In this document: one piece after another, positions 261 to 42,580 of the stretch
Numbering within the stretch: position 1 is the stretch's first letter
Layout of the letters: each line of letters starts with the position of its first letter
Origin: Escherichia phage DK-13
DNA length: 64,000 nucleotides
Reading direction: 5' to 3' (one strand)
Sequence record: MT611523.1
The notes under the pieces: generated by a model
Seen by the model: the letters and a program-made list of their open reading frames with translations, nothing else
Databases searched by the model: none
Told to the model about the DNA's origin: nothing
Program-made: the position numbers and the translations under genes

Positions 261-554
261 TTATTCACCTGTAACCCATTGAACAATTTTGCTATTGTCA
301 AATGAAGCATCGCAATACAGAACATAGTTATACTGCATAACGTCACCAGAAGTCAATTTGTCAGATACTTCTTTAACCATATCAGGGCGGTCACGTTTAG
401 TTATGTTCATAATATCAGCATAAATCTGATGTTCAACATCAGTCTGGTCGGCAGTCATAGACCACTCACAAAGGTCTTTATCAAGTCCAGCAGTAACTGG
501 AGCTGTACCACATGATGCTACGGTAAGAATTGCCGCGATTAATAACTTTTTCAT
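261..554 (-). CDS. sp: Periplasmic lipoprotein, Spackle (Sp/61.3)-like superinfection exclusion protein
   Basis: 97 aa; N-terminal signal peptide with lipobox-like LTVASCG; size and position in the 61.x block downstream of gene 41 match T4 sp; preceded by an early promoter cassette. Confidence 0.45.
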   Translation of the reverse strand: MKKLLIAAILTVASCGTAPVTAGLDKDLCEWSMTADQTDVEHQIYADIMNITKRDRPDMVKEVSDKLTSGDVMQYNYVLYCDASFDNSKIVQWVTGE

Positions 555-3213: not shown

Positions 3214-4381
3214 GGTCTTCCATCATATCTAAATCGTTTTCGATATCTGCAGCGGACGGTTTTGTCTTACCTTCAGGAGCAGAGTATTTTTCAACCTTGG
3301 AGGCAATAAGCGCATCAACTTCGGCATCAACAACAGCATTGCTATCGATTGCACCCAGTTGGTAATGGCGTTTGATTGCATCACGGAAAGGTTCGTGTTT
3401 AAACAGCGGCCCCCAGAATTCGGTGCAGTTAGTATCTTTTGCGCGCCATGATTTTTCTTCGCGGACCATTTCCCCGGTCTCAACATCAAGATATTCACGG
3501 TTATACCAACCAACTTTTGGTTTAACCACAAATCCGATTTCTATTGCCATATCAAGCAGGCCAGAATACGGGTCAATACCACCATCGAATTTTACATCAA
3601 TGAAGAATTTACTTTTCTCTTTGACCATACGAGATTTTTCGGCGTTCAGAACAAATTGGAAGCCTTCAAGTTCTTTACCAGTTTCTTTAATCTGACGTTT
3701 ACCGATAATGAATACAGTGTCCGCGGAATACATAACACCTGTGCCACCGGTCATAACGGTTTTACTGTACATCTCAATCGTCTCGATTGTATGGTTAACC
3801 GCGACACAAGGAATATCCTTGATACTAAAATAAGGGGTAACAATACGGAACAGAGATTTCAGGGATTTAGCACGAGTCATATCGCCAACGACTTTTTCGT
3901 TCATCGCATCTTCTGTTTCTTTTTTCGACGCCATGTTACCGATTGAGTCAATAAAGATAATGACTTTTTCACCACGCTCAATTGCTTCAAGCTGGTTAAC
4001 CATATCAACTTTCAATTGTTCAACCGACTGGATTGGTGTATGGATAACACGCTCCGGGTCTACTTTCATTGCACGAAGATATGCTTCTGTGATACCAAAT
4101 TCTGAATCATAGAACAAACAGATTGCGTCGGGGTATTTGTTCATATATGCAGAGACCATCGTTAAACCCATATTGGATTTAAAGTGTTTTGACGGACCAG
4201 CAAAAATAGTCAAACCTGACTGCATACCACCATCTAGTGCACCGCTGATTGCAATGTTCAGCATCGGGATTTTTGTACGAACTACATCTTTATCATTAAA
4301 GAACTTGGACTTGGTAAGAGTCGCAGTCATTTTGGATGTAGAAGCTTTAATCAAACGGGATTTCAAATCTGCAATAGACAT
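3203..4381 (-). CDS. uvsX: UvsX RecA-like recombinase
   Basis: 392 aa, RecA/Rad51-fold sequence; T4 UvsX size and position. Confidence 0.93.
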   Translation of the reverse strand: MSIADLKSRLIKASTSKMTATLTKSKFFNDKDVVRTKIPMLNIAISGALDGGMQSGLTIFAGPSKHFKSNMGLTMVSAYMNKYPDAICLFYDSEFGITEAYLRAMKVDPERVIHTPIQSVEQLKVDMVNQLEAIERGEKVIIFIDSIGNMASKKETEDAMNEKVVGDMTRAKSLKSLFRIVTPYFSIKDIPCVAVNHTIETIEMYSKTVMTGGTGVMYSADTVFIIGKRQIKETGKELEGFQFVLNAEKSRMVKEKSKFFIDVKFDGGIDPYSGLLDMAIEIGFVVKPKVGWYNREYLDVETGEMVREEKSWRAKDTNCTEFWGPLFKHEPFRDAIKRHYQLGAIDSNAVVDAEVDALIASKVEKYSAPEGKTKPSAADIENDLDMMEDLDE

Positions 4382-4610: not shown

Positions 4611-5114
4611 TTAGTTAATACCTTGGCGTGCTTTCTCTTTAGCTACACATTTATTAATATAGCTCAGACGGTTTTGAGCAGAACGCTGATACATATCGCG
4701 GTACTCATTAGCTTTTGGAGAACCCGTCTCTGCTGCCTGATAAGCTTCTGCGCGCATGATGTTTATCTGCATATTGATGTATGACATGCAGACCTGTGAA
4801 ATCTGGTTAACAGTATCCAGGTCATTTTGTCGCTTGGTTTCTGCTTCCAGCTTGGCAATGATTTCGTCATGCTTCGCAGCTTGCTCGCGTTTGTACTCAA
4901 TTTCTTGTTGAGCATATTTCGCGCAGTTGTTTCCACATTGATTGTTGTCGCGTTTGTAGATAAGTCCAGTACCACCTTTGAAATCAAAGGAACCATTATG
5001 CACCTGACGGTCTGCAGCAATTCGCGCTTTACCAATCTCGTTGGCATTAACAACATCACCCTGGTAAGCACAACCAGATAGCAGCATAACAGCTGCGATA
5101 GCTAACTTTTTCAT
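4611..5114 (-). CDS. Lipoprotein with coiled-coil region (occupies the T4 beta-gt/42 position)
   Basis: 167 aa; signal peptide MKKLAIAAVMLLSGC with lipobox; sits where T4 carries beta-gt and gene 42. Confidence 0.6.
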   Translation of the reverse strand: MKKLAIAAVMLLSGCAYQGDVVNANEIGKARIAADRQVHNGSFDFKGGTGLIYKRDNNQCGNNCAKYAQQEIEYKREQAAKHDEIIAKLEAETKRQNDLDTVNQISQVCMSYINMQINIMRAEAYQAAETGSPKANEYRDMYQRSAQNRLSYINKCVAKEKARQGIN

Positions 5115-5122
5115 TTTGCTTC

Positions 5123-5266
5123 CTAATTAAAACATTCATAGCGGGCTTGGAGCCCCAAAAATACCCAACCCAAAATTAAAGTTGGAATCATATGTGGAGT
5201 CATTATTGCCCAGTAGATTGACATACTAAAAAATGCAATCAGTACAATAATTGTAATTATCTTCAT
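5123..5266 (-). CDS. Small membrane protein (47 aa, imm.1-like position)
   Basis: Hand-translated MKIITIIVLIAFFSMSIYWAIMTPHMIPTLILGWVFLGLQARYECFN; its ATG overlaps the imm stop as ATGA. Confidence 0.35.
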   Translation of the reverse strand: MKIITIIVLIAFFSMSIYWAIMTPHMIPTLILGWVFLGLQARYECFN

Positions 5267-5505
5267 TTTGATTCCTTGATGATAATTACTTGTGCGTTTG
5301 ATTTACGTTCAGCAACGAGTGCCCAGATAAATGCAATAAACCATCCGACCATTGTCCAACCTAACAGAAGGTTAACAAAGAAGATTCCGCAATTACTTTT
5401 GGTACCACGCAGCAGCGCGATAATCCACGGCAGAAAATATGCCAGTGCAGCCAGGAAGAAAGAACCAGCCCCAAGAACAACAGTACCCGCAATTAATGTT
5501 TCCAT
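5263..5505 (-). CDS. imm: Imm superinfection immunity membrane protein
   Basis: 80 aa, two TM segments, YFLPWIIALLRG...NLLLGWTMVGWFIAFIWAL resembles the superinfection immunity family; directly upstream of gene 43 as in T4. Confidence 0.7.
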   Translation of the reverse strand: METLIAGTVVLGAGSFFLAALAYFLPWIIALLRGTKSNCGIFFVNLLLGWTMVGWFIAFIWALVAERKSNAQVIIIKESK

Positions 5506-35166: not shown

Positions 35167-35550
35167 TTACTCTAGTGTTAACAGATACTTAGTCTGAAAG
35201 AAAACTCCAACGATATCGTCCAGAGTCGATTGAATAGCCTTGGGTACAACTTTATAGACTCTTTCCGAGCTTTTAATCATTTCATCTAAAAACAAAATTG
35301 TATCTTTCGGCAAGTCCGAGGCGGACGGTAATGCAGCTTTGTATTGTTTCCCGCTGTAACCTAACCATTGCTCACTGAACTGGTCGAGTGGACCTTGGAT
35401 TTCTGTGAAGTAGAAATCATAAGCTTTATGGCGGGCGTAACTTTTGGTTTCAAGATGGGCGGACTTAAAATAAGCCAAAGAGACTAACAACCACCCAATA
35501 TATGAATCCACCTCAGACCCACGACCCGTTACGAAATCATCAAATTTCAT
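35167..35550 (-). CDS. Hypothetical protein
   Basis: 127 aa ORF. Confidence 0.5.
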   Translation of the reverse strand: MKFDDFVTGRGSEVDSYIGWLLVSLAYFKSAHLETKSYARHKAYDFYFTEIQGPLDQFSEQWLGYSGKQYKAALPSASDLPKDTILFLDEMIKSSERVYKVVPKAIQSTLDDIVGVFFQTKYLLTLE

Positions 35551-35833
35551 CTTCCAATTTTACCTTCATTAATTTAGCGTACTCTCTCGCCGCAGCTTTA
35601 CCATCGCTTTTGCAGGTAATTTCAGTTTCGCATTGGCTTTTGTTGTTCCATTCAGTCTTGATAAACGCCCAGAACTGTTCGGATTGGTGCACGCTTGGTT
35701 CTTTGAATTGCGAATAAATCTTCATCGCACTATCTGCATATTGGGTAAACTTCCCATCTGTTGCAGAGGACAGATTTGGACCTAAACAGCCCAGGATTAT
35801 TAGACTTAATGAAAGTCCTCGAATAAGGTCCAT
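35540..35833 (-). CDS. Secreted/periplasmic protein
   Basis: 97 aa; signal peptide MDLIRGLSLSLIILGCLGPNLSSA. Confidence 0.5.
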   Translation of the reverse strand: MDLIRGLSLSLIILGCLGPNLSSATDGKFTQYADSAMKIYSQFKEPSVHQSEQFWAFIKTEWNNKSQCETEITCKSDGKAAAREYAKLMKVKLEDEI

Positions 35834-37159: not shown

Positions 37160-37332
37160 AATTCAATTCCGTCCATAGCCAAAATTCTTTTTCGTTGGGC
37201 CTTGAGAGCCTCGGCAGCTTGGTCATAATCTTCTTTACTGCCGTGGGGTTGTAAAGCTGCCACCTTTTTAGCTAAATGAATAAGCTTATCTAAGTTTTCA
37301 ACAATACGTTCTTGTTCTTCATTCAGGCTCAT
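37156..37332 (-). CDS. Small hypothetical protein (58 aa)
   Basis: Hand-translated ORF MSLNEEQERIVENLDKLIHLAKKVAALQPHGSKEDYDQAAEALKAQRKRILAMDGIEL; stop overlaps the next start; coordinates approximate. Confidence 0.3.
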   Translation of the reverse strand: MSLNEEQERIVENLDKLIHLAKKVAALQPHGSKEDYDQAAEALKAQRKRILAMDGIEL

Positions 37333-37783
37333 AATCCACCACTATCAAATCAATGTCAGGGGTAAAAATATCAATTAACATAGAGACCTTTTCCCAATCT
37401 CCACCTGCAATACCACATCCAATCCGTGGGATATAAACCACTGGTCGGAATAGTGTTCCTTCACTCAGGACTCGATTTAATTCTACCATACAATTTACTA
37501 AAGCATGATAATCAAGATTTGGTCCTGGTTCATATTGGGTGTAAAGATTAAAGCAAGTTGACGGACCTCGGGAATATTTGAAAACAATAGACATATCGCC
37601 TAGTTTTCCTCTGTAACCATAGTCGGTTGAGGTTTTGTCTATTTCTAAAATCCTTGGATAAGCCTTCGCCAACTGACCAGCTACTCCTGAACCCATTGTA
37701 TGGAAGCAATTGCAACCATGTGCAATGTTTTTACCACTAAGAAAGAGGGCGACGATATCGCCCTTAATATACTGGGTAATCAT
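37319..37783 (-). CDS. Macro-domain-like protein (putative ADP-ribose binding/processing)
   Basis: 154 aa; GDIVAL...NIAHGCNCFHTMGSGVAGQL and IPRIGCGIAGGDWEKV align to the two glycine-rich ADP-ribose-binding loops of macro domains. Confidence 0.5.
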   Translation of the reverse strand: MITQYIKGDIVALFLSGKNIAHGCNCFHTMGSGVAGQLAKAYPRILEIDKTSTDYGYRGKLGDMSIVFKYSRGPSTCFNLYTQYEPGPNLDYHALVNCMVELNRVLSEGTLFRPVVYIPRIGCGIAGGDWEKVSMLIDIFTPDIDLIVVDYEPE

Positions 37784-38139
37784 TTAGAGTTCAACCCTCT
37801 ATTATATGAATCCACTAACCTGTCAACCATACTGGTGCAGGCCGCCTTATATTTTGCACTTGAAAGAATGCAATCCATTTCAAATAATTTCTTTTCATAT
37901 TTGTTGGATAATACATTCTTTTTCAAAAGTGTATGTTCAACATCATTTTGGCCATCTTTATATGCCGCGGTGAGCTTGGCGCTGAACTGGATTACACAAT
38001 CCACATTGCTTGGTGCGCAATAATCTTTAGCCGTCCTCGTTGCATATTCTATGATGCTGTTGTTGTCATCGCTCTGTACTGAAGCTATTCCTCCCATGCT
38101 GAATACTAACCCTATGGCTAAAGTGATAACTCTTACCAT
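37780..38139 (-). CDS. Secreted/periplasmic protein
   Basis: 119 aa; signal peptide MVRVITLAIGLVFSMGGIASV; several Cys. Confidence 0.5.
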   Translation of the reverse strand: MVRVITLAIGLVFSMGGIASVQSDDNNSIIEYATRTAKDYCAPSNVDCVIQFSAKLTAAYKDGQNDVEHTLLKKNVLSNKYEKKLFEMDCILSSAKYKAACTSMVDRLVDSYNRGLNSK

Positions 38140-38141
38140 TT

Positions 38142-38684
38142 TTAATCCACCGTTTTTAATAGGCCTCGTGATTTTAAGTAGTTAGCTTTTTCTAGGACCT
38201 GTGAAGCATACGTATTACCAGCTTTCACATTCCATCCTGCGTTATATGATGATAGTGTTTTCCTTATATCCCCCTTATGAATATTCAACCAGTATGAAAG
38301 CTCAATGTAAGCCCAGCGTGCACTGTTCTCTCTCTTGCTTATCATCTTGATTATTTCTTTATCTGTCATTGTCCACCCAACCTGTTTCACGCGTTCGCGC
38401 ACGGTTGGAAGATAATTTTGGAATATACCATATGCATGATGCTTATCTTTATTTAATCCAGTATTAATCCCAGCAGAACTCTCCTGCCAGGTTAAACCAG
38501 CCATGATATATCCCAAACCATTATGTTGGTGCGGATTTTCTTTGTACTTACCATTTTTCTGGAACTGTTCTCCAAACGCATAAGCATATTGGAGGTTTTC
38601 CATTTGTTCATTACTGAAAGTAGGCTCTACGCTATGGGCAGACATACTAACTGTCAATAGTAAGGTGGCGATTACTTTTTTCAT
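38142..38684 (-). CDS. Secreted lytic-transglycosylase-like protein
   Basis: 180 aa; signal peptide MKKVIATLLLTVSMSAHS; WQESSAGI...AYGIFQ and SSYNAGWN resemble the SLT motifs ES...GLMQ and YN.G. Confidence 0.45.
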   Translation of the reverse strand: MKKVIATLLLTVSMSAHSVEPTFSNEQMENLQYAYAFGEQFQKNGKYKENPHQHNGLGYIMAGLTWQESSAGINTGLNKDKHHAYGIFQNYLPTVRERVKQVGWTMTDKEIIKMISKRENSARWAYIELSYWLNIHKGDIRKTLSSYNAGWNVKAGNTYASQVLEKANYLKSRGLLKTVD

Positions 38685-38694
38685 GAATTCCCCA

Positions 38695-39153
38695 TTAGAT
38701 ATAAATCACTTTTGTGCTAATTTTTCCTTCCAGACGATTAGAGTTAACAAACGCCATACGACAACACATGGTCGGAGACTTCCCAGGAATAGCGGGGTTA
38801 ACTGTCATTCCTAACCACAGGTTCTTGTCCGTGATTTCCAGACGAAGTGGACGGTAGTTCACATTCGGGTCAATTTGTGCTTCAACTTCCGGGAGTGGTT
38901 TCATCTCCAAGAATTCAACGATTTCTTTTACATGTGGTGTGATTTTTCCAAACAAGTCAAAAACATATTGTTCATCAATTTCACGTTGGATTGCACGGTC
39001 CAACAGGTGTGGACTGTACTTAATGAAGAATGCCTCAAGGCCTGCTTCTTTACAAGCCTTGTTGATAGCATTATTAATTTTGAGGAACTCCGTTTCAAAA
39101 ATGCGACGAAGTTTATTGCGGCGAATGTAAACACTTGAATCGATAGTAGTCAT
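38695..39153 (-). CDS. regB: RegB sequence-specific endoribonuclease
   Basis: Start at MTTIDSS gives 152 aa; strongly similar to T4 RegB (IRRNKLRR.FE.EF..INN...YS.HLLDRAIQREIDE.YVF.LF...CRMA..NS.RL.GK). Confidence 0.85.
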   Translation of the reverse strand: MTTIDSSVYIRRNKLRRIFETEFLKINNAINKACKEAGLEAFFIKYSPHLLDRAIQREIDEQYVFDLFGKITPHVKEIVEFLEMKPLPEVEAQIDPNVNYRPLRLEITDKNLWLGMTVNPAIPGKSPTMCCRMAFVNSNRLEGKISTKVIYI

Positions 39154-39209
39154 GATTATCTCCTTTTGTTTGATGGGATAATCATAACTCATTTCAATCT
39201 GCTTGTACA

Positions 39210-39789
<580 letters not shown>

Positions 39790-42088: not shown

Positions 42089-42580
42089 TTATTTGTATGC
42101 GTCAAAAGTTCCGGTGCGGAAAGTTTCAATAACTCGTTTAGCCCGGTTCGGAGTCTGGACTTTATACCATCTTGAGTCTGCCAGTTCCTTGGCAGCCGCT
42201 TCCCATGATTTAGCCTTCAGCAATCGCATACCCTTAGGAAAACCAGCAACACCAGCAACACCCATCTGGAATACCATATTAATGAGTGCACAACGACGAA
42301 CTTCATCAAGTACATCATAAACAGGTTTTAAGACAGGATGCCTCAAGATTCCGGCTTTAGCTTTTTCGACCGAACGGTTAAACAATGTTTCAGCTTCGTG
42401 CTGGGTTATGCGACCATTACAGACGCGACCCATGAGCTTATCGAGCTCAGCACGAGCAACATCTTTTGATGGGTTCTTAGTTATCAGTTGCCCAATACCA
42501 ATGGTCCAAAAACCTTCGGTATCTTTATACAAATCTAACTTACAACCTTCATCTATGCGTAACATTTCGAATATATTCAT
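42089..42580 (-). CDS. e: Lysozyme (endolysin, gene e)
   Basis: 163 aa; strongly similar to T4 lysozyme ([12 protein letters not shown]...YKDTEG..TIGIG...[17 protein letters not shown]). Confidence 0.96.

Follow-up and report, generated by a model that had tools for sequence, protein, structure and literature searches.

We analysed a 64,000-nucleotide stretch of DNA from Escherichia phage DK-13 (sequence record MT611523.1), hereafter the window. Our focus is a pair of adjacent genes on its minus strand that correspond to vs.1 and vs of phage T4. On balance, we favour a joint explanation in which Vs.1, a lytic transglycosylase of family 1 (GH23) with a single domain, is exported by the Sec route and Vs is its periplasmic companion. 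Both parts are read from the sequences. These are ordinary, conserved T4-type genes with in silico annotation already published. The SLT resemblance of vs.1 is not new; it was described by Nolan et al. 2006 (PMC1524935), who also noted that a PSI-BLAST match of T4 vs.1 to lysozyme had been reported earlier. What remains is modestly interesting. The enzyme appears to be an early, periplasmic wall cutter and, above all, the label of Vs and its sequence disagree. Briefly, the predicted export signal of Vs does not fit its label as a modifier of a cytoplasmic enzyme. This conflict is more unexpected than Vs.1.

Judged by their sequences, the open reading frames (ORFs) of 180 and 119 codons are real conserved genes that form the vs.1-vs module of a T4-like phage. 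We identify them as such because they match phrog_600 and phrog_1256, respectively, and because the order regB, vs.1, vs, tk.4 is that of T4. The phrog_600 match spans residues 1-178 of Vs.1 (E 2e-67), and the gene lies between regB and vs as in T4. Vs.1 is 65% identical to the T4-type Vs.1 of five related loci (L024-L028). Vs is 46% identical to T4 Vs, phrog_1256 is annotated as "valyl tRNA synthetase modifier", and every Vs homologue has a precomputed match to PF26829. Homologues of Vs.1 fall into 89 protein clusters and those of Vs into 28. Only 10 bases separate the regB stop codon from the vs.1 ATG, as read from the sequence, and 2 bases lie between the vs.1 stop and the vs ATG (GAT TAA AA ATG). 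The vs stop overlaps the tk.4 start via ATGA. The 2.5-kb stretch around the pair shares 97.6% DNA identity with Escherichia phage pEC-M719-6WT.2 and ~95% with UPEC07 (Straboviridae, Tevenvirinae, Gaprivervirus). The initial annotation placed two adjacent genes at 37780-38684, and both ORFs are found there. It missed that they are vs.1 and vs, and that the SLT similarity had been published. Its catalytic glutamate, early timing and distinctness from the endolysin hold up, as described below. Neighbouring phage records call the 180-residue protein Vs.1 or "SLT domain-containing protein", and some GenBank/UniProt entries already name Vs.1 an SLT-domain or lytic-transglycosylase-domain protein.

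Vs.1 has a glutamate at the catalytic position of family-1 motif I, counterparts of motifs II to IV and a predicted lysozyme-like, alpha-helical catalytic fold. All the SLT-like motifs noted initially were found, WQESS spanning residues 66-70, AYGIFQ 84-89 and SSYNAGWN 145-152. We aligned 36 close homologues and, separately, 67 distant relatives with identity down to 21%. The latter were sampled from 476 relatives, mostly 160-200 residues long, recovered by searching 1.84 billion cluster representatives. In the close alignment E68, S70, G86, Q89, the run Y147-N148-A149-G150 and Y159 are invariant; E68, Y147, G150 and Y159 are still so in the broad alignment. E68-S69 of the ES motif is invariant, or nearly so, in both. 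E68 aligns with the ES-motif glutamate of Slt70 (ARQES), MltE (AIES) and EtgA (AWNES). In Slt70 and MltE, we take this glutamate to be the catalytic residue. Similarly, AYGIFQ aligns with ASGLMQ of Slt70 and AIGLMQ of MltE. Alignments of the close profile with the single Slt70 and MltE sequences, made with hhalign, have E ~0.2 and were used only to align residues. The broad profile matches EtgA at E 1.5e-4, with AIAWkES lying over AIAWNES.

The Pfam SLT family is matched by 35 of the 36 close homologues at E<=0.1 (best 1.3e-7) and by 37 of the 67 distant relatives at E<=0.01 (best 2.2e-10). The SLT-type fold inferred for Vs.1 is correct. Absence of the catalytic glutamate had been named initially as grounds for abandoning the enzyme. 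This objection falls away because E68 is invariant in the 36 close and 67 distant relatives and aligned with the glutamate of Slt70, MltE and EtgA. The N-terminal helix of Vs.1 is specific to the family and contains an invariant Gln27. Scans with NCBIfam and PADLOC gave no meaningful matches for Vs.1 or Vs. One protein from the search of cluster representatives, P0134 (2679 residues), has 18 separate matches to the Vs.1 profile, each at profile positions 123-166 (the AYNAG region); its appearance is that of a repeat protein, not an enzyme.

Both N-termini resemble signal peptides, as had been noted at the outset. Signals were recognised heuristically by a basic n-region, a 10-residue hydrophobic maximum of 1.8-3.7, no aspartate or glutamate, and small residues at -3 and -1. 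In Vs.1 and Vs alike, a basic n-region precedes a hydrophobic core of ~12 residues free of aspartate and glutamate, and the residues at -3 and -1 are small (MKKVIATLLLTVSMSAHS/VE and MVRVITLAIGLVFSMGGIAS/VQ, respectively). Of the 126 non-overlapping ORFs of the window, just four satisfy this heuristic: vs.1, vs, 261-554 and 4611-5114. The pattern recurs in 36/36 homologues of Vs.1 and in every full-length homologue of Vs, T4 Vs included, although the residues vary. Retention of the pattern while residues drift is how signal peptides behave. The AlphaFold2 model of Vs.1 has low confidence over the signal-peptide stretch, and that of Vs has a predicted local distance difference test score (pLDDT) below 50 at residues 1-23. 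In CC31-type relatives, Vs has a lipoprotein signal with a canonical lipobox, LSGC, in place of the signal peptide. Vs of these phages should therefore be a lipoprotein. We infer that both Vs.1 and Vs are exported.

The remainder of Vs points the same way. One alignment of Vs homologues included an internally deleted member; a second comprised full-length sequences. C41 and C48 are invariant in the full-length set and missing only from the internally deleted member, while C90 and C101 are invariant throughout. The pattern C-x5-6-C...C-x8-10-C occurs in 51 of 54 related loci. The C-terminal helix, SMVDRLVDSYNRGL, is also invariant. An AlphaFold2 model, computed from an alignment without the T4 Vs row, has four helices at residues 24-116 (pLDDT 76), and the cysteines bracket both helix-hairpin loops. 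They probably form two disulfide staples. The alignments contain no conserved internal start that would produce a signal-less form. Taken together, the signal peptide, four cysteines, invariant C-terminal helix and four-helix model point to an exported family. Two loci carry damaged versions. Vs of L009 has an internal deletion, is 85 residues long and lacks C41 and C48; Vs of L039 is truncated. Hence, Vs can be lost or damaged in natural isolates.

The 54 related loci, taken from IMG/VR, also speak to linkage. An ORF of the Vs type, with signal peptide and four-cysteine pattern, directly follows vs.1 in 51; in two loci the ORF is truncated and one has none. The Vs family occurs in two forms, that of T4 and a divergent one. 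A third exported ORF of ~140 residues (AWEKLPGYPE...RGCG...YVRVYD..YATY) directly follows vs in 24/27 loci with the divergent form and in 0/27 with the T4 form. It lies at ~3800-4300 of loci L016, L018, L035-L047 and L051-L059. The split holds in L016 and L018 even though Vs.1 there is 75-77% identical to Vs.1 of the window. No homologue of the third ORF was found in the window (best E 0.029). The fixed place behind an apparently exported enzyme, and the co-variation with a third exported protein, fit a periplasmic role for Vs. Downstream of a distant Vs.1 relative, a 21-kb contig contained no Vs-like gene; this relative otherwise occurs on ~217-kb contigs. Going by this single example, we regard the module as confined to T4-like phages. 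Features of the locus are listed in Table 1.

Table 1. Genes and predicted features at the vs.1-vs locus; positions count from the first nucleotide of the window.
Feature	Position	Strand	Details
vs.1 orthologue	38142..38684	-	180 aa; exported-looking single-domain SLT-like (GH23) protein; ORF and phrog_600, E 2e-67
Predicted Sec signal peptide of Vs.1	38631..38684	-	residues 1-18, MKKVIATLLLTVSMSAHS, cleavage after AHS; heuristic
Lysozyme-like / SLT catalytic domain of Vs.1	38169..38513	-	~residues 58-172
Glu68 codon, predicted catalytic acid (WQ-E-SS)	38481..38483	-	ctc on + strand = GAG; invariant in close and broad alignments
Motif II AYGIFQ (counterpart of GLMQ)	38418..38435	-	G86, Q89 invariant
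Motif III SSYNAGWN (counterpart of AYNxG)	38229..38252	-	motif IV Tyr159 lies 7 residues further on
vs orthologue	37780..38139	-	119 aa; small exported-looking four-helix protein; phrog_1256, E 8.5e-33
Predicted signal peptide of Vs	38080..38139	-	~residues 1-20, MVRVITLAIGLVFSMGGIAS; heuristic
Region of four conserved cysteines of Vs	37837..38019	-	C41 38017-38019, C48 37996-37998, C90 37870-37872, C101 37837-37839
regB orthologue	38695..39210	-	upstream neighbour, same tightly packed transcription unit; Pfam REGB_T4, E 3.2e-72
tk.4 orthologue (macro domain)	37319..37783	-	downstream neighbour; Pfam Macro, E 1.7e-6

The T4 orthologues of both genes are classed as early at the RNA level and middle at the protein level (PMC9697503 supplements). 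This supports the initial view, for the T4 orthologues, that the enzyme is made early. It is also separate from the endolysin, as proposed; a T4-lysozyme-type endolysin is encoded at 42089-42580. Just upstream of the pair we found no MotA-box middle promoter. Sites resembling sigma-70 promoters are about as common in the window as expected by chance (20 found, 15.8 expected); one of them lies at 40054-40026 on the minus strand. No anomaly of base composition was seen. Just past the vs stop, within the first tk.4 codons, is a terminator-like GC-rich hairpin, AGGGCGATATCGTCGCCCT, with a T-rich tail (37746-37764, minus strand). It may be a chance occurrence or may attenuate read-through.

Transposon insertion data for T4 and Bas37 come from the HIDEN-SEQ preprint (doi 10.1101/2025.11.20.689424). 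In these data both genes are dispensable in either phage, and the preprint classes T4 vs.1 and vs as non-essential. In lysogeny broth (LB), mean reads per insertion site are 26.6 for vs and 22.6 for vs.1, compared with 179-652 for neighbours. For the Bas37 homologues, the values are 23.5, 73.8 and 324-537, respectively. In M9 minimal medium, vs is the most depleted T4 gene (log2 fold change -2.19, adjusted p 0). The log2 fold change for vs.1 is -0.87 (p 0.0055, adjusted 0.155). Deletion of vs results in poor plaques on M9-glucose. That vs.1 is depleted in LB as strongly as vs speaks for Vs.1 being useful in its own right.

A simple scheme would accommodate these data. Vs.1 would be exported to the periplasm during infection, following the early transcript and middle-period protein seen in T4. 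There, with Glu68 as its only acid catalyst, Vs.1 would cleave the MurNAc-GlcNAc bond in the murein of the host, well before lysis. The expected effect would be opening or remodelling of the wall in the latent period, not lysis, and would probably be local, as for small specialised transglycosylases. Vs would be exported alongside, as a periplasmic partner that activates, targets, regulates or inhibits Vs.1. The pair is dispensable yet raises phage fitness, most clearly in minimal medium. A bolder reading, which we regard as possible rather than probable, is that Vs really is, or is also, a disulfide-bonded periplasmic protein that acts on the envelope together with Vs.1, joined in many relatives by the third exported protein.

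Several observations weigh against an enzyme with a periplasmic companion. Vs.1 of the window scores only 14.4 bits against Pfam SLT (PF01464), below the gathering cut-off of 21.3 (E 0.029). Sequence searches of the PDB with Vs.1, or with the close-homologue profile, returned nothing significant. In the literature, we found no experimental study of vs.1, solved structure or enzymology, and no work on the localisation of Vs.1 or on the enzymology or localisation of Vs. Low counts of insertions in vs.1 could reflect polarity on vs. Adjacency of vs.1 and vs is weak proof because all genes of the region are tightly packed, and vs also overlaps tk.4. The conserved cysteines could be cytoplasmic metal ligands, not disulfides. 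The label of Vs concerns valyl-tRNA synthetase, a cytoplasmic enzyme whose modification also acts in vivo. Classically, Vs is described as binding this synthetase (Muller and Marchin 1975, 1977, as cited in PMC8076793).

Hence the main rival: Vs.1 is a lone exported transglycosylase, and Vs is a cytoplasmic tau peptide that binds the valyl-tRNA synthetase of the host, stabilises it and is only incidentally adjacent. Its N-terminus would be unused, or would direct partial export. We regard this as possible rather than probable. The biochemistry cited in PMC8076793 supports it, on the premise that this ORF is the genetic vs locus. So does the view of the HIDEN-SEQ authors, who interpret the M9 defect of the vs deletion as an effect on translation or nutrients. 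The tight packing leaves room for neighbours that are unrelated, and the milder M9 effect of vs.1 insertions suits partial polarity on vs. However, a cytoplasmic Vs does not account for a Sec-type signal in every full-length homologue despite residue drift, for the lipobox of CC31-type homologues, or for the four conserved cysteines. Nor would it explain the place right behind an exported enzyme in 51/54 loci, the third exported ORF beside the divergent form (24/27), or the lack of a conserved internal start. We found no paper that discusses the signal peptide of Vs or the conflict over its localisation, the classical Marchin/Neidhardt papers being outside the scope of that search. We conclude that the signal peptide, the lipobox in relatives, the four cysteines and the adjacency fit a periplasmic companion better than a cytoplasmic factor.

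If Vs is periplasmic, it could restrain Vs.1. Muralytic enzymes of phages can be inhibited in the periplasm by small helical proteins such as Spackle, and EtgA is controlled by its partner EscI. An inhibitor or immunity-like Vs, in the style of Spackle and gp5, would have the loss of vs free a wall cutter, with the worst outcome under slow wall synthesis. This would explain why, in minimal medium, losing vs costs the phage more than losing vs.1 does (-2.19 and -0.87). An enzyme and its inhibitor should show such a difference, all the more so if insertions in vs.1 have polar effects, and export signals on both proteins agree with it. Conversely, in LB the insertions in vs.1 are as depleted as those in vs, which suggests that Vs.1 is beneficial. 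Structural comparison gave no match between Vs and known lysozyme or transglycosylase inhibitors. We also considered homology of Vs to Spackle and rejected it, since only the signal peptides align. Overall, we consider an inhibitory Vs unlikely.

Other roles for Vs.1 fare worse. It could be a hydrolase, either a goose-type muramidase or a chitinase-like enzyme, or it could bind murein without catalysing anything. We think this improbable: each of the four motifs of family-1 transglycosylases is invariant, no aspartate is conserved in the loop that follows ES (Ala84 occupies the position of EtgA D60, an auxiliary aspartate) and E128 is not invariant in the broad alignment. What sets a transglycosylase apart from a goose-type lysozyme is non-hydrolytic cleavage that yields 1,6-anhydro-MurNAc; the missing aspartate is an indirect hint of such cleavage. 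Equally doubtful are the superinfection exclusion and lysis-timing roles suggested initially. A protein that is predicted to be periplasmic and made before lysis could serve either, and further early proteins directed to the envelope (Spackle-like, imm-like and rI) are encoded in the window. Against both roles, simple competition on a single host is enough to reveal the fitness effect in the transposon screens, the effect varies with the medium, and T4 exclusion and lysis inhibition are already attributed to known genes, namely imm, sp, rI, rIII and t.

The other exported proteins mentioned in the initial annotation were also recovered. That at 261-554 (minus strand) is a 97-residue lipoprotein with lipobox VASC that contains DKDLCEWSMTADQT. 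By its sequence it may be the orthologue of T4 Spackle (gp61.3), the periplasmic inhibitor of gp5 lysozyme. That at 4611-5114 (minus strand), between uvsX and the DNA polymerase gene, is a lipoprotein of 167 residues with lipobox LSGC. It adjoins an imm-like membrane protein of 80 residues (5263-5505, minus strand). The ORF at 35540-35833 is rI. Downstream of vs, the T4 counterpart of tk.4 (37319-37783, minus strand) is named AdfM in the HIDEN-SEQ preprint (doi 10.1101/2025.11.20.689424), which proposes that AdfM strips ADP-ribose from DNA and so neutralises DarT2. In UPEC07 (locus L001), several small ORFs of the region bear implausible names, such as "molybdopterin-guanine dinucleotide biosynthesis protein" for ORFs of the mobD.x type and, for a second ORF at 3626-3862 of the locus, "valyl-tRNA synthetase modifier". 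Product names of the region are not trustworthy.

The two genes form a small island that matters for fitness, surrounded by early genes that are dispensable. Should Vs.1 prove to be a transglycosylase that is active in the periplasm long before lysis, T4-like phages would be editing the host wall during the latent period, an activity that standard accounts of T4 infection do not include. A periplasmic Vs would mean that a functional label of long standing is wrong or incomplete, and the assignment of ORF to function across annotations of T4-like genomes would need revision. If it also works with Vs.1, the minimal-medium defect of vs mutants would be an envelope phenotype.

The closest known system is the T4 pair itself. 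T4 vs.1 (phrog_600; UniProt P13311) and vs (phrog_1256; P13310) are orthologues, alike in gene order, signal peptides, motifs and the four cysteines. The window pair differs only in sequence divergence and genus, which is Gaprivervirus-like, not Tequatrovirus. Among family-1 enzymes (PF01464), Slt70, MltE, MltF and MltC share just ~13-16% identity with Vs.1, which lacks accessory domains and stays below the Pfam gathering cut-off. Vs.1 resembles small specialised members such as EtgA, the transglycosylase of a type III secretion system. It has Ala84 instead of the EtgA loop aspartate, and an N-terminal helix of its own with the invariant Gln27. Unlike EtgA-type enzymes, Vs.1 comes from a lytic phage and has no known secretion machine that requires it. 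The virion-borne phage transglycosylases T7 gp16, phiKZ gp144 and phi6 P5 are virion or lysis proteins, whereas Vs.1 has a predicted cleavable signal, is early and has no known virion role. For Vs, T4 Spackle (gp61.3) and gp5 lysozyme offer a functional analogy: an early protein that is small, helical and exported controls a periplasmic muralytic enzyme. Spackle and Vs have no relationship in sequence or fold, and any interaction of Vs with Vs.1 is putative.

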